In this document: positions 1 through 7,024 of the stretch, one piece after another
Layout of the letters: the number at the start of each line of letters is the position of its first letter
Position numbering within the stretch: position 1 is the stretch's first letter
IMG/VR virus record: IMGVR_UViG_2547132272_000021
Coordinates: 1-7,024 of that record
DNA from: a virus
Lineage: Duplodnaviria; Heunggongvirae; Uroviricota; Caudoviricetes
DNA: 7,024 nucleotides
Direction: 5' to 3' (one strand)
Program-made: the position numbers and the translations under genes
The notes under the pieces: model-generated
Databases searched by the model: none
Seen by the model: only the letters and a program-made list of their open reading frames with translations
What the model was told of the DNA's origin: nothing

Positions 1-82
1 CCATACCCACGGATTACGGGTGCTGGTCACTGCCCCTTCCAGCTTAAGCTCTCCGCTGAAATCCTCTCCCGGCGTGTTCCAG
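1..82 (-). pseudogene. Distal part of a host ORF interrupted by the insertion (exported-protein-like)
   Basis: The minus-strand frame is open from 82 to the window edge (...WNTPGEDFSGELKLEGAVTSTRNPWVW) and has no start codon of its own. It joins in frame to the 6981-7024 fragment once 83-6980 and one TCCAG copy are removed. Confidence 0.6.
78..82. repeat. Target-site duplication, left copy (TCCAG)
   Basis: TCCAG lies immediately outside the TG terminus at 83. An identical 5-mer lies immediately outside the CA terminus at 6980. The match does not extend on either side. A 5-bp duplication is the Mu transposition signature. Confidence 0.85.
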
Positions 83-87
83 TGTGA

Positions 88-109
88 TGGTTCATGATAA
101 ATACGAAAA
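88..109 (+). repeat. MuA-type transposase end-binding site, L1-like
   Basis: TGGTTCATGATAAATACGAAAA matches 18 of the 19 specified positions of TGNTTCAYTNNAARYRCGAAAR. It occupies nt 6-27 from the terminus, which is where I recall Mu L1 lying (TGTAT-TGATTCAC... in Mu, TGTGA-TGGTTCAT... here). Confidence 0.85.
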
Positions 110-215
110 GAATAATCCGGGATTAGGTTAGTAAAGACGGGAATAGATTGGAGTGAAAAATCTTTTGTATCAGCAGTTTGTTAGCGCAAAGATATGTGTT
201 GGTAAAGTTATCCCT

Positions 216-237
216 TCATTTCTGTGAAACACGAAAA
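216..237 (+). repeat. MuA-type end-binding site, L2-like (weaker first half)
   Basis: TCATTTCTGTGAAACACGAAAA matches the AARYRCGAAAR half perfectly, but the TTCAY half is degenerate, giving about 14 of 19 positions. It has the same orientation as L1. Confidence 0.6.
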
Positions 238-256
238 AATGAAAGGATTACGTGAT

Positions 257-278
257 TGTTTCACTAAAGAGGCGAAAA
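257..278 (+). repeat. MuA-type end-binding site, L3-like
   Basis: TGTTTCACTAAAGAGGCGAAAA matches 17 of 19 consensus positions and has the same orientation as L1. It starts 41 bp after the L2-like site, which resembles the L2-L3 spacing I recall for Mu attL. Confidence 0.75.
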
Positions 279-393
279 GATGGTTGATTGTATAAAGTCT
301 TCAAATATGTTCAAAACCGCTTCAATACTGCATTTGAAGCTGGTTTAAGGTGGGGCATAGGTGTCTGATAACAGAATTTACTATAAACTTTGT

Positions 394-403
394 TGATGCA
401 TCA
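394..403. promoter_or_regulatory. Perfect 10-bp palindrome TGATGCATCA (candidate operator)
   Basis: The sequence is self-complementary. It shares the TGCAT core with the 476-493 palindrome and with 505-509. Confidence 0.35.
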
Positions 404-426
404 TGAATTTAAATGTTTTTATTTAA

Positions 427-439
427 AATCAATGCGTTA
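427..439 (+). promoter_or_regulatory. IHF consensus match (WATCAANNNNTTR)
   Basis: AATCAATGCGTTA fits every specified position. It is preceded by an A/T-rich tract (405-426) and lies between the two TGCAT palindromes. Confidence 0.45.
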
Positions 440-475
440 GTGAATATTACATGATACATAGGTGTAAAGTAGCGC

Positions 476-493
476 ATTGCATATCTATGCAAT
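476..493. promoter_or_regulatory. Inverted repeat ATTGCATA-tc-TATGCAAT (candidate operator)
   Basis: It has 8-bp perfect arms and a 2-bp spacer. It lies about 25 bp upstream of the candidate promoter. Confidence 0.4.
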
Positions 494-516
494 ATGTGTC
501 GGATGTGCATAAACAC

Positions 517-545
517 TTGCCAACCAATTTTATTGTTGATAACTT
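517..545 (+). promoter_or_regulatory. Candidate sigma70 promoter of the immunity operon
   Basis: TTGCCA (517-522), a 17-bp spacer and TAACTT (540-545). Alternatives are TTGATA (536-541), 16 bp, GATAAA (558-563), or the TATAAA at 545-550. The choice between them is ambiguous. Confidence 0.35.
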
Positions 546-552
546 ATAAAAG

Positions 553-571
553 CACTCGATAAAGTCGAGTG
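553..571 (+). other. Stem-loop CACTCGA-taaag-TCGAGTG at or near the predicted 5' end of the immunity transcript
   Basis: It has a 7-bp perfect stem and a 5-nt loop, with no U-tract after it. It could be a 5' stabiliser hairpin or a palindromic operator overlapping the alternative -10. Confidence 0.3.
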
Positions 572-685
572 TCGGGCGTAGGAACCCGTGTAAGCACATG
601 GCGACACAAGACGCGCCAAGCGTCTTTTTTATTGTCGTAATATCAGCGCACCTGCATTCAGTGGCTTATGGTGCACCGTATCTAT

Positions 686-761
686 GGTGGCGCTGGTGGG
701 GCAGTCGAAAGGCTGGCCGGTTTCCTTGTGCGCCGGTATTCCTACCCCCGCCAGCGTCACC
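686..761 (+). ncRNA. P1 C4 / P4 CI-type immunity antisense RNA (about 76 nt)
   Basis: A 16-bp closing stem pairs 686-701 with 746-761 (14 Watson-Crick plus 2 G.U pairs). An inner hairpin pairs 717-720 with 733-736. Its 12-nt loop (721-732, TTTCCTTGTGCG) is complementary to 805-816 across the icd-like Shine-Dalgarno sequence. The single-stranded TTCCTAC (739-745) is complementary to GTAGGAA at 775-781 and 578-584. The size and position upstream of an Icd-like gene match the P1 C4 (77 nt) and P4 CI RNAs. Confidence 0.7.
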
Positions 762-774
762 GCCCCTTATGAGT

Positions 775-816
775 GTAGGAACTCAGGCGGTGACTCCTTA
801 AATTTGCACGAGGAGG
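775..816 (+). promoter_or_regulatory. Antisense-RNA target boxes (a2-like 775-781, b2-like 805-816) covering the icd-like RBS
   Basis: TGCACGAGGAGG (805-816) pairs with the RNA loop 721-732 through 8 Watson-Crick and 4 G.U pairs, and it contains the GAGGAGG SD (810-816). GTAGGAAC is repeated at 578-585, which is the a1-like copy. Confidence 0.6.
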
Positions 817-823
817 CTGCCAA

Positions 824-1021
824 ATGGCTACGACCCCAACCACTTTACGCTCTGAATTTACCTTTCATTTTCTGGCTGTTCGCCGTTCCGATCTGAACGA
901 CCGCCCACACCGCGAATCTATTAACGCACCTGATGAAGCAACTGCCCGTCGTATGCTGGCACGTGATTTTGTGTTGGTGTTTGCTGCCTGCATCCCTGCT
1001 AAAGGGGGTAAACATGAATAA
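824..1021 (+). CDS. icd: Host cell division inhibitor Icd-like protein (65 aa)
   Basis: The motif F.FLAVRRSDL..PH....A.DEA.ARRMLARDFVLVFAA is characteristic of Icd-like proteins of P1 and P4-type elements. A strong SD (GAGGAGG) lies 7 nt upstream of the ATG. Confidence 0.8.
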   Translation: MATTPTTLRSEFTFHFLAVRRSDLNDRPHRESINAPDEATARRMLARDFVLVFAACIPAKGGKHE

Positions 1022-1418
1022 TGTTGTCAAGTTTCCGGTGCGGAATAATAAAAAAGTTGCGAAATCGAGAGAAGATATTGCTGTAAATCTGTTTAAAGAT
1101 ATTGTTGCTGCTTTATCAAAACAGGCGCGTGACTATATTAATGATGGCGTTACCGGGATCAATGGATGCCTAGATGGTAATGGCGGATATGAAACCTTTC
1201 TATCCTCTTTGTTGCTTTATATTCGTGGCATTGACTCAAAAATTGGCCTGTTTAGTATGTCTCTTGATTCAATACATCCAATACTACATGATGCATGCAA
1301 TGACTTAACGAAAGTTATTTCCCTGACGGAGCGTTTTATTGAAAGTAGAGGCGTAATCGCAGAGGCGGCAAATGGAAAACTTACAGAAGAACAAACGCGG
1401 CAGACTTTCAAAAATTGA
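1014..1418 (+). CDS. Hypothetical protein (134 aa) in the ant/eps position of the immunity operon
   Basis: The ATG at 1014 is preceded by GGGGG (1004-1008) and overlaps the icd-like stop (ATGAATAA), which suggests translational coupling. I recognise no family for this protein. Confidence 0.6.
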   Translation: MNNVVKFPVRNNKKVAKSREDIAVNLFKDIVAALSKQARDYINDGVTGINGCLDGNGGYETFLSSLLLYIRGIDSKIGLFSMSLDSIHPILHDACNDLTKVISLTERFIESRGVIAEAANGKLTEEQTRQTFKN

Positions 1419-1734
1419 ATTGCTGCCTGAAAAGATAAAAAGGAAGCTTGATAAAATGCTTATCTCACGTAAGTATTCTCAGGCTGAAATTCTAAATATC
1501 ATAGATCAGGATATAGTAATAGCAGGGTGTTCAGAACTGGTCATATCCAAAACCGGATTGAACAGATATGCGATTAGTTTAATCAATGCTGTTTCGGTAG
1601 CCAAGAAGCATGGAGAAGTGTCTCGCCGTTATAAGCATGCCGAACTACACAGGAGACTTGATAAACTTGAATCAAAGATAGACAGATTAGGGACCAGACT
1701 TGAACGAGTGTTAGAGCTTCTCGAAAAACATTAA
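1372..1734 (+). CDS. Mu gp27 / DUF3486-like small-terminase-like DNA-binding protein (120 aa)
   Basis: The N-terminus KRGRLSKIELLPEKIKRKLDKML...SQAEIL...ISKTGLNRYA fits the R.SK+D.LP.E+R..+D..L......+..EI......+S+S.L.RY pattern of Mu-like gp27 proteins, followed by a coiled-coil C-terminus. An SD (GAGG) lies 6 nt upstream of the ATG. Confidence 0.6.
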   Translation: MENLQKNKRGRLSKIELLPEKIKRKLDKMLISRKYSQAEILNIIDQDIVIAGCSELVISKTGLNRYAISLINAVSVAKKHGEVSRRYKHAELHRRLDKLESKIDRLGTRLERVLELLEKH

Positions 1735-1741
1735 CTATCCC

Positions 1742-1767
1742 AAAGCCGCCCCGTGCGGCTTTTTTAT
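1742..1767 (+). terminator. Rho-independent terminator ending the immunity/terS-like operon
   Basis: AAAGCCGC-cccgt-GCGGCTTT gives an 8-bp stem that runs into a T6 tract, 8 nt after the stop codon. Confidence 0.85.
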
Positions 1768-1935
1768 TGTTTGGCACTCGCTGTACATATCAGCGCATAT
1801 TTCATGGAAAACGGTAAATCTATCTTCCCTAAAAATCCCGAGTAATCTCACAGCATCCAGAGCAAACGGAGATGGTTCTTTTTTGAAAAAATTATGTTTT
1901 ATCACAATCGGGGATAAACTTATTTTTGATTCCCA

Positions 1936-1970
1936 TATCCGCAATAATCGTTATCGTAACATTGCGGATA
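1936..1970. promoter_or_regulatory. 10-bp perfect inverted repeat TATCCGCAAT-N15-ATTGCGGATA (candidate regulator-binding dyad)
   Basis: It sits in the 287-bp non-coding gap (1768-2054) upstream of the Mor-like genes. It is interdigitated with CGTTATC (1949-1955) / GATAACG (1967-1973), and a tandem ATCGCGC-ATCGCGC lies at 1998-2011. Confidence 0.4.
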
Positions 1971-2054
1971 ACGTTAAGTTTGCTGCAAGCATTGGCTATC
2001 GCGCATCGCGCTCAAATGTACACAGGTATATGCAAAAGCTTAAGCGAGAAGATT

Positions 2055-2783
2055 ATGGCTAAACAAACCTTTAAAAATCTCATGTTAACGCCGCCACACA
2101 ATGATATTACAGCGATAAATAAATTCATTGTTTCTTCATGCTTTTCTCGTGATATCTGTGATGTTATGTCTTATATCGGTAAAATGGGATATGCATGTAA
2201 TTATAATGAAGTCAGTGAGCATGTGAAATTGATTGAAAAACAATTCCACGCAGTAAAACATGAACAGAGAGGCGAGTGTGAAATTGATGTTTTTTGTAAT
2301 GTCGCAGGCACCGCTCTCTTTAATGAATTTATATCTGTTTGCGGGAAACAGACGTTCTATCTTGATGCAATGAAATTTGAACCGGATTTTTTTAGTGGTG
2401 GCCCGGTTAAGCATATCCGCAAAACTGCTATTATCGCTTTATTGAGAAATGAAACAAAGATTCTTCCAGAAAGTGTGACCATGATTATGGGCGCTATTGA
2501 GGCGGCATTAAAAAAAATTGGAGTAGACCCACAAGAAGAAGTAAACAGCACGACAAAAATATTCATTGCAACAAAGGCATTTCTGGAAGTTGTAGGTGGA
2601 ATTCAGTTTTATTTACCTAAGGCCGACTCACTTAGTAGAATAATGAAAAAAGCAAATATATATGCAGATAGTTATGTTATGTCTCCTGCTGAACTAGCTA
2701 TTAAATATGGGGAGTCTGGTAAATCGATATACACAACAATAAAACATGTAGGAGCGGTTATTGGTAATCATGAGCAAAGTTAA
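2055..2783 (+). CDS. Mor/C-family transcriptional activator paralog with a roughly 130-aa N-terminal extension (242 aa; start uncertain, alternatively 2016)
   Basis: The C-terminal ~110 aa (LKKIGVDPQEE...VVGGIQFYLPKADSLSRIMKKANIY...MSPAELAIKYGESGKSIYTTIKH) aligns with Mu Mor as I recall it (LSRLGVDPAHS...LGGGQVYIPRGQALDSLIRDLRIW...VSELTTRYGVTFNTVYKAIRR). Confidence 0.65.
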   Translation: MAKQTFKNLMLTPPHNDITAINKFIVSSCFSRDICDVMSYIGKMGYACNYNEVSEHVKLIEKQFHAVKHEQRGECEIDVFCNVAGTALFNEFISVCGKQTFYLDAMKFEPDFFSGGPVKHIRKTAIIALLRNETKILPESVTMIMGAIEAALKKIGVDPQEEVNSTTKIFIATKAFLEVVGGIQFYLPKADSLSRIMKKANIYADSYVMSPAELAIKYGESGKSIYTTIKHVGAVIGNHEQS

Positions 2784-3192
2784 CATAAATAATGCACACA
2801 TATTACAAACAGGTCTGAGCCTCGGTATTGATGTAATGAGAAGTAATCTTCCTGAAGAGTTAAAACTTGTAGAACGTGCAGTTATTGAATCATGTAATGA
2901 TATTGGCTTAAATCCAGAGCATGAAATTAATGGTTTATCATTTATTGGTCGGGTCATATTAAAAATAATGGAACTACAAACCGGATGTAGTTTCATACCT
3001 GAGTATGCGATTGATTCATCCAGAATTATTTTTATTTCTAAAGTTGCTGCATATGCAGAAAAATTTGGAGCAGATAAAGCAGCCAAAGCCTACTCCATTA
3101 CAGTAGATCAGGTTACGGAAATGATGAATGAAGCAAGTATGTTTGTTTCCCAATTTGATGATTTTGGTATAGACAAGGAGAAAAGCCACTGA
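2770..3192 (+). CDS. Second Mor/C-family activator paralog (140 aa)
   Basis: LPEELKLVERAVIESCNDIGLNPEHEIN parallels LPESVTMIMGAIEAALKKIGVDPQEEVN of the upstream protein. G-C-S-F-IPE corresponds to the GG.Q.YIP motif, and the C-terminal AKAYSITVDQVTEMM is HTH-like. The gene overlaps the upstream gene by 14 nt. Confidence 0.5.
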   Translation: MSKVNINNAHILQTGLSLGIDVMRSNLPEELKLVERAVIESCNDIGLNPEHEINGLSFIGRVILKIMELQTGCSFIPEYAIDSSRIIFISKVAAYAEKFGADKAAKAYSITVDQVTEMMNEASMFVSQFDDFGIDKEKSH

Positions 3193-3246
3193 AACACGCT
3201 GTGATGTTGTTTTGTCTTATCGGCGGTGTTCTGGGTGCCCTGCACC

Positions 3247-3290
3247 TTTTTGAAGGTGCTACGGTGTTTTTGAAGGGGTTTTGAAGGGGG
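3247..3290 (+). repeat. Three direct TTTTGAAGG(G) repeats in the gap upstream of the gpI-like gene (candidate activator-dependent late promoter region)
   Basis: The copies are TTTTTGAAGG at 3247-3256, TTTTTGAAGGGG at 3267-3278 and TTTTGAAGGGGG at 3279-3290, with a degenerate TTTTGCA at 3291. The first copy lies inside the hairpin GCACCTT-tttg-AAGGTGC (3242-3259). I could not find a convincing sigma70 -35/-10 pair. Confidence 0.4.
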
Positions 3291-3300
3291 TTTTGCATCC

Positions 3301-4140
3301 ATGACAGAGGAACTAATGAATATAATCGCTTTATGCACTGATTTATCGGGTGATAAGACTCCTCCGGAATGGGTTGAGTTACTGCCAGCAGGACCGGAAA
3401 TTGAAGGGCGTGACGGAAGGAGCTGGACACTTAAAGATCCACAAAGCATTAAACAGGCGTTTTCGTGTCGCGGAATGTCACTTGTGGTCGATTATGAACA
3501 CTCTACAGAAGTGATTGCACCAAAAGGTGGCGAGGCTCCTGCCGCCGGATGGATTAATGACGTTGCTGTCCGTAATGATGGTTCTGTATGGGGAAGAGTT
3601 GAATGGACTCCACGGGCAATGAATTCCATTACATCCCGTGAATACCGATACCTTTCACCAGCGTTCCGTCATTCTCAGGATGGTGAAATACTGGAACTCG
3701 TTAGCGTGGCGTTAACGAATAAACCAAATCTGAAACTTACTGCGCTGAATACTCAGCAGACACTTAGCAAAATCGCACTGGCACTTAATATGGAGGAAGT
3801 TAATTCACTTGAAGAAGTGCTGACAGCGTTAAATAAAAGACAAGCTGAACAACATAGTCAGATTGTAAATGAATATATCGAAAAAGCTGTTTTCTGTCCG
3901 GCCCAGCGGAATATTCTTCTGTCCATGTGTTCAAGTGTTGGAGAAAATGCATTCAGGAAGTTTGCTGATATGCAGGAAAAATCGACGAGTAATTTTTTAC
4001 ACTTTGCTAGGCCTGTAAGTGTAAAAGGTAAAGAACCCCCGAGAACGCTTACTGAATCGCAACTGGCTGTTTGCCGCATTACAGGTGTAAGCGAAGAAGA
4101 CTATTTGATAGCTTTAGGAAAAGAAAATGAAAGATATTAA
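3301..4140 (+). CDS. Mu gpI-like prohead protease / scaffold (279 aa)
   Basis: PEWVELLPAGPEIEGRDGRSW...DYEHS...AGWI...VEWT..A...I....YRYLSPAF... is the Mu-like prophage I protein signature. The C-terminal third is helical and charged, which is scaffold-like. Confidence 0.85.
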   Translation: MTEELMNIIALCTDLSGDKTPPEWVELLPAGPEIEGRDGRSWTLKDPQSIKQAFSCRGMSLVVDYEHSTEVIAPKGGEAPAAGWINDVAVRNDGSVWGRVEWTPRAMNSITSREYRYLSPAFRHSQDGEILELVSVALTNKPNLKLTALNTQQTLSKIALALNMEEVNSLEEVLTALNKRQAEQHSQIVNEYIEKAVFCPAQRNILLSMCSSVGENAFRKFADMQEKSTSNFLHFARPVSVKGKEPPRTLTESQLAVCRITGVSEEDYLIALGKENERY

Positions 4141-5023
4141 TTGTGTAATTGCTGATGCTACTATCGCTTTTAACGCCAAGTTTGAATCAGGAAAAAAAGC
4201 CTACAATCCTGTACATCCAACGATTGCTTCAGAAGTAACGTCTTCATCGGCAGTTAGTGCTTATGGCTTCCTCGAAGATTTCCCGGAAATCAAAGAGTGG
4301 TTAAACGACCGACAGTTAAAATCACTGTCAACCCGTGATTATTTTCTGAAAAATAAAACGTTTGAAAGCAGCATTCAAATTAAACGTGAGGATTTTGAAG
4401 ATAATGATTATGGTAAGTATTCAATGGTTTTTGAACAGTACGGGCGCAAAGCGGCTGCATTCCCTGATAAGTTACTGTTTGAAGCTATGAAGAAAGGGCA
4501 CTTATCAGAAGGAATTGATGGGCATAACTTCTTTGCTACTGACCATCCTAATGGTGAAGGCGTTTATTCAAACCTCTATGGAAGCAATCCAGCAAAAAAT
4601 GCAGATGCAACGCCGTTATGGTACTTATTTGATGGTAGTCAGGGATTGAAACCTTTTATTTATCAGGTTCGTCGTCCAATGGCTGTAACTTCTGTTACTG
4701 ATTCCGGCGCTACCGATGTGTTTCTGAATAATCGTTTTCTGTTTGGTGTTGATGGGCGTCTTAATGTTGGATATGCAATGTGGCAATGCGCAGCGGCATC
4801 ATGGGATACGCTGAATGAAACCACATTTAATGAAGTGTACGACGGGATGTTATCCGTTAAGGGAAGTAGCGGTGAACCATTGGGAATCGTGCCTACTGTT
4901 ATTGTAGTCCCCGTATCGTTAAGAGCCGCAGCGGAAAAATTGCTGTTACGTCAGTATCTGGATAACGGGGAAGACAATCCAAATTATAAACGCGTGGAAA
5001 TTATTGTTTCACCATTTATTTGA
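4127..5023 (+). CDS. Mu gpT-like major capsid protein (298 aa)
   Basis: It is colinear with Mu T as I recall it, over segments such as YGFLEDFPEIKEWLNDRQ, FESSIQIKREDFEDN, DGHNFFATDHP, LKPFIYQ, NVGYAMWQ, VVPVSLR and NGEDNPNY. An AGGA SD lies 7 nt upstream, and the gene overlaps the gpI-like gene by 14 nt. Confidence 0.9.
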   Translation: MKDINCVIADATIAFNAKFESGKKAYNPVHPTIASEVTSSSAVSAYGFLEDFPEIKEWLNDRQLKSLSTRDYFLKNKTFESSIQIKREDFEDNDYGKYSMVFEQYGRKAAAFPDKLLFEAMKKGHLSEGIDGHNFFATDHPNGEGVYSNLYGSNPAKNADATPLWYLFDGSQGLKPFIYQVRRPMAVTSVTDSGATDVFLNNRFLFGVDGRLNVGYAMWQCAAASWDTLNETTFNEVYDGMLSVKGSSGEPLGIVPTVIVVPVSLRAAAEKLLLRQYLDNGEDNPNYKRVEIIVSPFI

Positions 5024-5029
5024 TAATTC

Positions 5030-5054
5030 GGAGGGGATTTCCCCTCCTGTTTTT
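5030..5054 (+). terminator. Rho-independent terminator/attenuator directly after the capsid gene
   Basis: GGAGGGG-attt-CCCCTCC gives a 7-bp GC-rich stem followed by TGTTTTT, 6 nt after the capsid stop codon. Confidence 0.75.
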
Positions 5055-5066
5055 ATGGGGAATATA

Positions 5067-6854
5067 ATGAGTAATAAGTTAAGCACGGAAATACTGATAA
5101 ATCTTACGGGAAATCTTACCGCTAAAGCACGACAGTACGGCGCAAATATGTCGCAGTTCGCCCGTAACCATCAGAAGGCAATGCGACTGGTCAAGGCCAC
5201 AACTGAATCCGCCACGCGTGGCCTTGATATGCTGGGTAATCGTTACACAGCGATGATTGCAGGTTTTGCAGGTAGCGCCATGATGCGTGAGTTTGCACAG
5301 GTTGATCGCCGGATGACCCGTATTGGTATTGCCGCAGAAAAGACGCGCGACGAAATGGCACAGATGCTGAATGGTATTCAGGACACCGCCATCAAATTTA
5401 AGGTTGATGACAGTGAACTGATAAGCGCGGTGGAAAAAGTTGGCACAATAACAGGCGAGATTGAGTTTGGCATCAAGAATAAGGATGTTATGGCGGCCTC
5501 CATCGCGGCTTCAGGAAGTGAAGGCGAGTTCATTGGCTCGCTGTTTTCCCTGTTTACGAAGTTTGGCATTAAGAATGAAGACGACTCACTGAAGGCCATG
5601 GACACCCTGAACCTGCTGGGGAAGGAAGGTGCCTATGAATTGAAAGACTTTGCAGAAAAATCCACCCGCGGGATGTCGCTGTATGCCGCTGCAGGTGGAC
5701 GGGGCGTAAAGGGTGTCAAGGAGTTTGGTGTTGTAATGGAATCTGCTGTGGATGCCACCGGGAACCGTGATACAGCAGCCACAACGGTGGAAAATTTCAT
5801 AAAAGATTTGCAGAACCCGAAAGTCGTCAAAACGCTTAAGCATAATGGCATTAACGTATTCGATAGCGAAGGCCATATGCGTTCACTGCCCGTTCTTCTT
5901 CAGGAGATTGCCACCCGCTCGGGAAGCAAAGGCTCGGAAATACAATCCAAACGACTGGATGAAGCCGGATTTCTTGATGACGCAAAAATGTTAATCAAAT
6001 CGGTAACGTCCGGTAAAGGCGCAGAAAACCTGCAACGCTATATGAAAGTCGTCGGTGATGGAAAAGGCATCATGAAGGATGCCGCATATGCCGCACAGGA
6101 CTTTACGTCTTCCATGCAGGCGCTGGAAACCAGCTGGAAAAAATTCTCTCATAACCAACTGGCAAAACCTGTTCAGGAACTGGCTGATGCCATTAACAGT
6201 GTCGACCAGAACACTGTCCAGAACTGGCTACAGGTTGCCAAATACATGGCGATTGCTGTGGGCGGCATTATCGCCGTGCGTAAGACGTACAAGCTCGGTA
6301 AAACCATCCACGACATCATGAATCCCAAAGAGAAAGGCAAAGGGATACCCGGCAGTATTACGGATGTTTTCGGTTCTGGCGTGATGCCAGTGTATGTGGT
6401 CAATATGGGCAGCGGTGGGATGAATGGTAATACCAGTGGTTTGCCGGATGCGCCGGATTCATCACGCAATCCCCGTGGACCAAAGACGCCAACACTGGTT
6501 ACACCACAAACGGTATCAGGATTTAATCTCCTTGACATGGCGCTATCTGCTTTCCCCAAAAATAAAGAGGAAGCTGACGCGTTAATCGCACGGGTTCAGG
6601 AAAACAACAACCGCCCGACGGTATGGACGGATATTAAGAACTGGTTTAACTCTCTGGAGAAAAAGAACATCGCCGCTCCATCTCCGTGGGATGTCCTGCA
6701 ATCCACACAGAACGCGCCATTCGTACCACAGCAATTGCAGGGAGAAATCCGTGTGGTGGTGGAAGGTGATGCACGCGTGAAAAGCGTCAGAGTGGATCAA
6801 CCTGGCGTCAGACTTAGTGCTCAGGCAGGGGTTACCAGTGTAGAACAAAGTTAA
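5067..6854 (+). CDS. Tail tape-measure-like protein (TP901/PhageMin_Tail-type core; 595 aa)
   Basis: The central region (FAQVDRRMTRIGIAAEKTRDEM...AASIAASGSEGEFIGSLFSLFTKFGI...NLLGKEGAYELKDFA...GINVFDSEGHMRSLPVLLQEIA) looks like tape-measure core repeats. The C-terminal part has a hydrophobic segment (YMAIAVGGIIAV) and a Gly-rich stretch. I chose the ATG at 5067 because GGGGA lies 6 nt upstream, whereas the TTG at 5004 would overlap the capsid gene and the terminator. Confidence 0.7.
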   Translation: MSNKLSTEILINLTGNLTAKARQYGANMSQFARNHQKAMRLVKATTESATRGLDMLGNRYTAMIAGFAGSAMMREFAQVDRRMTRIGIAAEKTRDEMAQMLNGIQDTAIKFKVDDSELISAVEKVGTITGEIEFGIKNKDVMAASIAASGSEGEFIGSLFSLFTKFGIKNEDDSLKAMDTLNLLGKEGAYELKDFAEKSTRGMSLYAAAGGRGVKGVKEFGVVMESAVDATGNRDTAATTVENFIKDLQNPKVVKTLKHNGINVFDSEGHMRSLPVLLQEIATRSGSKGSEIQSKRLDEAGFLDDAKMLIKSVTSGKGAENLQRYMKVVGDGKGIMKDAAYAAQDFTSSMQALETSWKKFSHNQLAKPVQELADAINSVDQNTVQNWLQVAKYMAIAVGGIIAVRKTYKLGKTIHDIMNPKEKGKGIPGSITDVFGSGVMPVYVVNMGSGGMNGNTSGLPDAPDSSRNPRGPKTPTLVTPQTVSGFNLLDMALSAFPKNKEEADALIARVQENNNRPTVWTDIKNWFNSLEKKNIAAPSPWDVLQSTQNAPFVPQQLQGEIRVVVEGDARVKSVRVDQPGVRLSAQAGVTSVEQS

Positions 6855-6856
6855 AT

Positions 6857-6887
6857 ATATGCTGTATATCACAAAATAGCAGCATAT
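6857..6887. repeat. Inverted repeat ATATGCTG-N15-CAGCATAT after the last gene, containing a possible degenerate third MuA-type site
   Basis: It has 8-bp perfect arms. The loop and right arm (6865-6886, TATATCACAAAATAGCAGCATA) share TCACAAAA with the R1/R2-like sites but match only about 10 of 19 consensus positions. The orientation is opposite to R1/R2. Confidence 0.25.
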
Positions 6888-6931
6888 TAATTCAATGCGT
6901 CCGATTTTTTATTCGGTGGTGTTTTGTTTTT

Positions 6932-6953
6932 TTTTCGCGCTTTTTGTGAGATG
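6932..6953 (-). repeat. MuA-type end-binding site, R2-like
   Basis: The minus strand reads CATCTCACAAAAAGCGCGAAAA, about 15 of 19 consensus positions. It directly abuts the R1-like site in the same orientation. The two 22-mers are 20/22 identical. Confidence 0.75.
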
Positions 6954-6975
6954 CTTTCGCGCTTTTTGTGAAACG
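6954..6975 (-). repeat. MuA-type end-binding site, R1-like
   Basis: The minus strand reads CGTTTCACAAAAAGCGCGAAAG, 17 of 19 consensus positions. It occupies nt 6-27 from the CA terminus, exactly mirroring the L1-like site at the other end. Confidence 0.85.
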
Positions 6976-6980
6976 CCTCA

Positions 6981-6985
6981 TCCAG
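6981..6985. repeat. Target-site duplication, right copy (TCCAG)
   Basis: It is identical to 78-82 and directly abuts the CA-3' terminus. Confidence 0.85.
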
Positions 6986-7024
6986 GCCAGTACACAGGAA
7001 GGCAGGAGGCTGGCAGCAAACAGA
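6981..7024 (-). pseudogene. Proximal part of the interrupted host ORF (signal-peptide-like segment)
   Basis: The minus-strand frame reads LFAASLLPSCVLAW. In the present state it runs on into the element end (MRRFTKSAKASHKKREKKTKHHRIKNRTH) and stops at the TGA complementary to 6892-6894. In the reconstructed empty site it continues as NTPGEDFSGELKLEG... Confidence 0.6.

Follow-up and report, generated by a model that had tools for sequence, protein, structure and literature searches.

Does a satellite of a Mu-like phage carry its own means of steering DNA packaging, and, if so, which part of the packaging machinery does it carry? The question is raised by a gene of 120 codons at positions 1372-1734 of a 7,024-nt stretch of tailed-phage DNA (positions 1-7,024 of IMG/VR record IMGVR_UViG_2547132272_000021; hereafter, the window). 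Its product, which we call the short gp27, resembles gp27, the small terminase subunit (TerS) of Mu-type phages, and it is encoded in an element that has no large terminase subunit (TerL). An earlier note, made from the letters of this DNA, had suggested that the protein redirects the TerL of a helper phage to the left end of the element, as the TerS of phage-inducible chromosomal islands (PICIs) does for satellite DNA. We find that the short gp27 is a gp27-family member that retains the N-terminal helix-turn-helix (HTH)-type domain alone, that its gene has been maintained by selection, and that it accompanies a conserved pair of sequence boxes at the left end of a family of Mu-type satellites. 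We tentatively propose that it acts on the packaging signal as a modulator of the helper terminase.

Homology and predicted structure of the short gp27

1372-1734, plus strand: short gp27-like gene, encoding the gp27 N-terminal HTH-type domain (about residues 9-80) followed by a helix with coiled-coil heptads (residues 85-119)

The open reading frame (ORF) begins with ATG, with GAGG located 6 nt 5' of the start, and the same coding sequence (CDS) in E. coli copies of the element is labeled 'phage protein Gp27 family protein' in RefSeq. Confirming the family assignment made in the earlier note, a hidden Markov model search matched the protein to PF11985 (Phage_Mu_Gp27, formerly DUF3486) with 38.6 bits (E=1.9e-9), relative to a curated gathering cut-off of 28 bits. 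The match pairs residues 15-83 with positions 1-64 only of the 173-position profile, and the match to PHROG 426 ('terminase small subunit'; E=9e-14) is similarly confined to profile positions 2-60 of 184. By comparison, the gp27 proteins of a helper-type prophage (193 aa, 185 bits) and of Mu (191 aa, 179 bits) cover the PF11985 profile in full (positions 1-172 and 1-173, respectively). Full-length representatives of the family in our library are 187-194 aa long, close to the length of roughly 180 aa that the note had given in describing the present protein as short.

Residues 1-70 of the short gp27 and the N-terminus of the Mu-like prophage gp27 (193 aa) share 45% identity; the basic arm RGRLSK is conserved between the short and the helper-type protein, and the two have the same predicted recognition helix, TGLNRYAI. 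No alignment between the short gp27 and the prophage gp27 extends beyond residue 70, and the last 50 residues of the short protein have no detectable homology to gp27. When the C-terminal parts of the short and full-length proteins were compared using hhalign, the homology probability was 0.6%; for this reason, we rejected the idea that the C-terminal helix is a remnant of a gp27 helix, even though MAFFT set it against the 'QRLE' helix of the full-length protein. The short gp27 thus departs from the full-length PF11985 architecture (N-terminal HTH, central helices, C-terminal tail) in having neither the central helices nor the conserved C-terminal '...ILGI' tail. It departs from the family in position as well: full-length gp27 is encoded directly 5' of TerL in Mu, in the helper, and in L012, a true Mu-like phage, while the short gp27 gene does not lie immediately upstream of a TerL gene in a late head operon. 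By score, then, the short gp27 is a member of PF11985, and it retains the N-terminal HTH-type domain alone. This pattern is the reverse of the one that the note had expected of a hijacking protein, namely a divergent DNA-binding N-terminus joined to a conserved C-terminus that interacts with TerL.

In an AlphaFold2 model of the short gp27 (mean predicted local distance difference test score 80), the conserved domain forms helices at residues 20-32, 37-50, and 60-80, and is followed by one long C-terminal helix (residues 85-119). In this helix, L92, L96, L99, I103, L106, L110, V113, and L117 follow a 4-3-4-3 heptad spacing, and the resulting four-heptad coiled coil probably makes the protein a dimer or a small oligomer. 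Helices predicted at residues 98-120, 127-171, and 178-189 of a full-length gp27 representative are missing from the short protein; full-length gp27 is, like the short one, predicted to end in a helix, albeit a short one.

Maintenance and mobility of the gene

The combination of an N-terminal gp27 domain with a C-terminal amphipathic helix recurs, at an identity of just 25-38%, in proteins of 113-116 aa, and the gene order around these relatives is icd-like gene, variable gene, short gp27, two genes, gpI-like gene, and gpT-like gene. Full-gene comparisons between variants of the element yielded ratios of nonsynonymous to synonymous substitution rates (dN/dS) of 0.2-0.3. When the gene was divided into halves, the values were 0.05-0.26 for the C-terminal and 0.26-0.33 for the N-terminal half. 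Judged by these substitution patterns, the short gp27 gene is under purifying selection, and is a maintained gene rather than debris. A closer comparison, with the copy in strain UMNF18, revealed a local divergence hotspot, with 25 differences over positions 1400-1799 as opposed to about 1% elsewhere. The two proteins differ at 11 of 120 residues, and the part of the gene that was compared has 15 substitutions with a dN/dS near 1, a number too small to call positive selection.

Window positions 1388-1772, which include the short gp27 and the terminator that follows it, are 87% identical in L003 and L004. These two loci share no other DNA with the window, and differ from it in their ends, immunity region, and capsid genes, a distribution suggesting that the short gp27 and its terminator travel as one module. 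Further relatives were few: a scan of species-representative genomes produced none, a word-index protein search returned only close relatives, and scans of viral and metagenome sequences yielded L011, a satellite variant with an IS3 insertion, the Mu-like phage L012, and L013, the metagenome contig to which the window itself belongs (Ga0209547_100208). In L011, the IS3-family element (10470-11743) lies directly 3' of the gp27-like gene.

A second ORF with some resemblance to this family is present in the window. It encodes 59 aa from a TTG start at 1883-2062, and weakly matches the HTH region of gp27 (PF11985, E=0.017; PHROG 15000, E=1.5e-4). The ORF is intact in all copies, which are too conserved for a test of coding selection, and carries no annotation in RefSeq.

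The element and its candidate helper

78-82: left target-site duplication, TCCAG (5 bp), repeated at 6981-6985
83-110, plus strand: left terminal Mu-type end site (L1-like), TGTGATGGTTCATGATAAATACGAAAAG, aligning with nt 1-27 of the Mu and helper attL
222-279, plus strand: L2-like and L3-like Mu-type end sites, aligned with Mu and helper TGAAACGCGAAAG and TTGTTTCATT..ACGAAAA
3301-4140, plus strand: Mu gpI-type head protease/scaffold (279 aa; PF10123, 167 bits), 34% identical to helper gpI (320 aa)
4127-5023, plus strand: Mu gpT-type major capsid protein (298 aa; PF10124, 299 bits), 43% identical to helper gpT
5067-6854, plus strand: tail tape measure protein (595 aa; PHROG 973), 88% identical to the helper tape measure protein (603 aa)
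6932-6980, minus strand: right terminal Mu-type end sites (R1-like, R2-like), reading TGAGGCGTTTCACAAAAAGCGCGAAAGC ATCTCACAAAAAGCGCGAAAA on the minus strand, to be compared with the helper and Mu attR
6981-6985: right target-site duplication, TCCAG (5 bp)

The short gp27 gene is located in a non-autonomous, Mu-type transposable element of 6,898 bp (83-6980). The element is bounded by MuA-site-like terminal repeats that start with TG and align with the Mu attL and attR, and these are flanked by a 5-bp duplication; copies in E. coli also begin at window position 83. When the two flanks are joined with a single copy of TCCAG, they reconstitute intact E. coli F4-type fimbrial genes (faeH/faeI-like; 97% identity over 988 nt), and the element in the window is a clean insertion into such a gene.

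Copies with 5-bp duplications were found at four different sites. The duplication of the UMNF18 copy is GCCAG, inside a LysR-family gene, and that of the variant L005 is CTGTA; the STEC388 copy splits an autotransporter gene, and the host genes hit by these elements include fimbrial, yiaK, and ycaN-type regulator genes. The element is carried by nine complete E. coli genomes, five of which have two copies of it, at different sites; in one of these five, RIVM_C039629, the protein accessions of both copies are identical. Target duplications and repeated copies of this kind are sequence signs of recent transposition.

When compared with profile libraries, the ORFs of the window gave no match to a large terminase, a portal, or a transposase, in agreement with the note as regards TerL. 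Neither a transposase nor an AAA ATPase is found among these ORFs, and the element thus has no counterpart of MuA or MuB. It does encode its own head protease/scaffold and major capsid protein, as well as a tape measure protein whose gene is nearly equal in length to that of the helper and 84% identical to it in DNA. As the capsid genes are only 34-43% identical to those of the helper, the tape measure gene appears to have been captured from the helper recently. It is absent from a 4.8-kb variant of the element (L005, 5298-10065), and in the STEC388 copy its end is replaced by IS1 (L002, 10999-11696).

Similarity to this tape measure led to the candidate helper, a Mu-like prophage that has near-Mu attL and attR, MuA/B, gp27, TerL, portal, and a full set of tail genes. 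The terminase-portal region of the helper is present in 51 of 5426 E. coli genomes overall, and in all nine of those that carry the satellite (Fisher p = 3e-19, or about 8e-7 if only three independent lineages are counted). With no transposase, TerL, or portal, with Mu-type ends compatible with the helper, and with this co-occurrence, the element carries every hallmark that sequence can provide of a satellite of a Mu-like phage. Such a satellite would rely on a resident Mu-like prophage for transposase, terminase, portal, and most tail genes, and would supply its own capsid protein, protease/scaffold, and tape measure.

Pac-like boxes at the left end

118-149, plus strand: pac-like double box CGGGATTAGGTTAGTAAAGACGGGAATAGATT (CGGGA-N15-YGGGA, 20-bp offset), a candidate gp27-type binding site
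1816-1847, minus strand: internal helper-pac-like sequence GATTACTCGGGATTTTTAGGGAAGATAGATTT, between the early terminator and the Mor-like gene

In general outline, the PhageTerm paper (PMC5557969) describes headful packaging that is initiated from the left end. In the satellite, the first left-end repeat is followed immediately by a pair of CGGGA-type boxes, 20 bp apart. The same arrangement, together with a third box, is found at nt 32-63 of Mu and the helper; Mu pac is reported, in papers from 1985-1990, to map to about nt 32-58 of attL. The double box was present in seven of seven left ends examined (at nt 29-54): those of Mu, the helper, and five satellites with at least three types of end repeat. 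The bases that flank the boxes differ among satellite, helper, and Mu.

The terminal repeats themselves are not conserved. Satellites whose short gp27 proteins are 83-93% identical have unrelated repeats, which are of the Mu type, the GATACC type (L003, 8400-8600 and 13380-13500), or the TTCAAGATAA type (L011, 8560-8960), and their immunity and capsid genes differ too; this variation suggests that end modules have been swapped to match different transposable helpers. All of these variants keep both the double box and the short gp27. As the two persist together across types of end repeat, the short gp27 goes with the pac-like boxes rather than with the transposase sites, which constitutes circumstantial evidence that the boxes are its target. 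We infer that the left-end double box is the DNA site that the short gp27 would recognize.

A further sequence, at 1816-1847, is the window's best match to the pac region of the helper (27 of 32 positions, with one 2-nt gap). Its score of 28 is marginal relative to the maximum of 26 obtained in 40 shuffles. The site is present with two changes in the UMNF18 copy and is absent from the other satellite variants, and no sigma-70-like promoter was found around it, between the terminator and the Mor-like gene.

The early operon

552-630, plus strand: isrK-type small RNA with terminator hairpin (Rfam RF01394, 59.4 bits relative to a gathering score of 50)
680-767, plus strand: C4-type antisense (immunity) RNA (Rfam RF01695, 77.1 bits relative to a gathering score of 45)
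824-1021, plus strand: icd-like gene (65 aa; NCBIfam NF033153, 71.8 bits; PHROG 6928 and 1743)
1014-1418, plus strand: gene of 134 aa with no family matches, in a variable slot between the icd-like and gp27-like genes
1742-1772, plus strand: intrinsic-terminator-like hairpin (1742-1762) and T-run, closing the early operon

The short gp27 gene is the last gene downstream of the isrK-type RNA, the C4-type RNA, and the icd-like gene. Together, these three features (552-630, 680-767, and 824-1021) resemble the immI regulatory region of phage P1, and head the early operon; P1 carries icd-ant in the equivalent early, RNA-controlled operon. The isrK region includes a promoter-like site (536-565) and a hairpin (608-626). 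In RefSeq copies, an 'ash family protein' CDS is annotated over the C4 RNA, and looks like a protein call made on an RNA gene. The upstream regulatory features, along with the terminator at 1742-1762, fit the note's view that the gene is expressed from an immunity-controlled operon and apart from the head genes, to the extent that expression can be predicted from such an arrangement.

The slot between the icd-like gene and the short gp27 is filled by non-homologous genes in the window (1014-1418), L003 (9712-10035), L008 (1067-1399), and L011 (9614-9976), and none of these four genes has a family match. We considered whether the upstream gene might be the split-off C-terminal part of gp27, or else a constant partner of the short protein. 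Both ideas were rejected, as the gene has no similarity to gp27 and the occupants of the slot are not homologous.

Possible roles of the short gp27

Our preferred reading, which we hold at somewhat less than even confidence, is that the short gp27 is a pac-binding, TerS-derived modulator of the helper terminase. It would be a working protein in its own right, derived from the Mu-type small terminase (gp27, gene D) by keeping the N-terminal HTH-type domain and replacing the remainder with a four-heptad coiled coil. Made early from the RNA-controlled immunity operon, ahead of the late expression of the helper terminase, the protein would bind as a coiled-coil oligomer to the CGGGA-N15-YGGGA box beside the first left-end repeat. 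There, and at pac sites generally, it would serve as a modulator or competitor of helper gp27, biasing or gating helper gp27/gp28; packaging initiation would thereby be biased toward the satellite, and helper gp27 would not be replaced. A role as modulator or competitor is proposed because the regions of gp27 for the TerS ring and for TerL contact are missing; in other small terminases, by analogy, ring assembly and TerL contact would be carried by the part that is lacking here. Whatever its precise effect, the probable target of the short gp27 is the packaging signal, on which it would act as something less than a complete terminase subunit.

Several points weigh against this proposal. (i) The TerS role of Mu gp27 rests on a GenBank annotation ('terminase small subunit, also known as D') and on the naming of the family, and we found no experimental work on Mu gp27/terminase or on the Mu pac site in the searchable literature. 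(ii) The CGGGA-N15-YGGGA motif is so loose that about 0.4 matches per 7 kb would be expected by chance, and derives its weight from its constant position. (iii) The boxes of helper and satellite are nearly the same, and a simple competitor would mask the satellite's own site too. (iv) Fold searches with the short gp27 gave no informative match. (v) Placement in the early operon would suit a regulator equally well.

The last point leads to a different explanation, which we consider rather unlikely: that the gp27 HTH has been reused in the short gp27 to build a factor for transcription or DNA architecture, with no direct role in packaging. It might, for instance, bind as a dimer at the internal pac-like site or at the left end, and control the timing of late genes or of transposition. 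An HTH joined to a coiled-coil dimer is a common architecture among regulators, the gene occupies the RNA-controlled operon in which P1 has icd-ant, and the helper-pac-like sequence at 1816-1847 lies between the terminator and the Mor-like gene, in a region where no sigma-70-like promoter was detected. However, that internal site, with a score only marginally above those of shuffled sequences, is missing from other variants that keep the gene, and the left-end double box is the only DNA feature that is conserved with the gene across variants.

The suggestion in the earlier note corresponds most closely to another explanation, according to which the short gp27 is the satellite's own TerS, recognizing the left end and recruiting helper gp28 directly, with the new helix as the TerL contact. 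Parts of that suggestion stand: a gp27 homolog is present in an element that has no TerL and bears the hallmarks of a satellite, it is conserved across the satellite family, and it co-occurs with a left-end pac-like motif common to Mu and the helper. The architecture of the C-terminal amphipathic helix is conserved as well, and full-length gp27 also ends in a helix. What does not stand is the notion of a complete TerS. Everything in gp27 beyond about residue 70 is missing, including the '...ILGI' tail; the C-terminal part that takes its place has no detectable homology to gp27; and the part that is conserved, rather than divergent, is the DNA-binding domain. Further, the gene appears not to be co-transcribed with the head genes, and, because the pac-like boxes are common to helper and satellite, the helper's own gp27 could serve the satellite. 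With a conserved N-terminus and no gp27 C-terminus, direct recruitment of TerL in the style of the Staphylococcus aureus pathogenicity islands (SaPIs) or the PICI-like elements (PLEs) is not the most economical reading, and we regard the short gp27 as distinctly unlikely to be a stand-alone TerS.

Finally, it is very improbable that the gene is a decaying, functionless remnant of a defective Mu-like prophage, as its truncation relative to the family and the dN/dS near 1 in the UMNF18 comparison (15 substitutions only) might suggest, given that the ORF is intact, that its length and architecture are kept down to 25-38% identity, that dN/dS is 0.2-0.3 in deeper comparisons, and that the gene has kept its position in a coherent element with target duplications and duplicate copies.

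Other genes of the element

2055-2783, plus strand: Mor/C-family activator homolog (242 aa; PF08765, 33.8 bits; PHROG 532), with the Mor domain at residues 138-241
2770-3192, plus strand: gene of 140 aa with no family matches, 'hypothetical' in RefSeq copies
3244-3294, plus strand: 51-bp segment in common with the helper intergenic region 5' of gene I (88% identical to L006 13507-13557)

At 242 aa, the Mor/C-family protein is roughly double the usual length (129-140 aa in Mu), and its N-terminal 137 residues have no family match. The 51-bp segment, located upstream of the satellite gpI gene, is made up of TTTTTGAAG-type repeats; in the equivalent intergenic region of Mu, a gyrase cut site is marked in the Mu record. 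We considered, but found no support for, the possibility that the segment is a copy of the helper's C-dependent P_I promoter placed 5' of the satellite gpI gene, as the shared 51 bp lie upstream of the P_I-like segment of the helper, which the satellite lacks.

Relation to known systems and significance

The short gp27 and Mu gp27 (gene D; PF11985/DUF3486) are homologous over their N-terminal 70 or so residues, including the basic arm and the putative recognition helix. They differ in length (120 aa as opposed to 187-194 aa), in genetic setting (an early operon controlled by small RNAs as opposed to a late head operon, adjoining TerL), and in the unrelated coiled coil of the short protein. The TerS proteins of SaPIs and PLEs, which redirect helper TerL, are complete homologs of TerS, capable of assembling and of engaging TerL. 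The present element resembles those satellites in having a TerS-family gene, no TerL, and a site that looks like a packaging signal. Unlike their TerS, the short gp27 has only the DNA-binding domain, apparently lacking, with the gp27 regions beyond residue 70, the means of ring formation and TerL contact, and the double box presumed to be its DNA site recurs, with other flanking bases, in the helper. Ppi of SaPIs and Rpp of E. coli PICIs, in contrast, lack homology to TerS and act by binding the TerS protein of the helper. The short gp27 differs from them in being derived from TerS and in being a predicted DNA binder; nevertheless, it too is a small satellite protein that we propose acts on helper packaging initiation without replacing it, and, by this analogy, it may be functionally nearer to packaging-interference factors of the Ppi/Rpp type.

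The element as a whole has likewise only partial counterparts. Like a laboratory mini-Mu, it has Mu-type ends, generates 5-bp duplications, and depends on MuA/B and packaging functions supplied in trans; unlike one, it is natural and conserved, and has an RNA-based immunity region, a Mor-like activator, capsid genes, and the short gp27. With capsid-forming PICIs it shares the possession of its own capsid protein and protease/scaffold, but it lacks an integrase, a replication module, a TerS/TerL pair, and a portal. We found no description of natural Mu-type satellites, or of DUF3486 in satellites, in the searchable literature, which is itself incomplete, and a prior description may exist.

The short gp27 is a marker of a family of satellites of Mu-like phages, transposable and equipped with capsid genes, for which we found no earlier account. 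One possible, if doubtful, extension of our proposal is that it is the signature gene of these satellites, each a natural 'mini-Mu' that uses helper MuA/B and its own capsids, and that encodes a TerS-derived insulator or decoy of pac sites. If so, pac signals would be pre-occupied or remodeled so that satellite DNA is what the helper terminase packs into satellite capsids, a mode of hijacking distinct both from the replacement of TerS by SaPIs and PLEs and from the binding of TerS by Ppi and Rpp. The short gp27 would also offer direct experimental access to the interaction between Mu pac and TerS, on which we found little published work. Satellites are known to redirect packaging in two ways, either with a complete TerS or with a protein that binds the helper TerS; a conserved, stand-alone TerS DNA-binding domain would constitute a third route.

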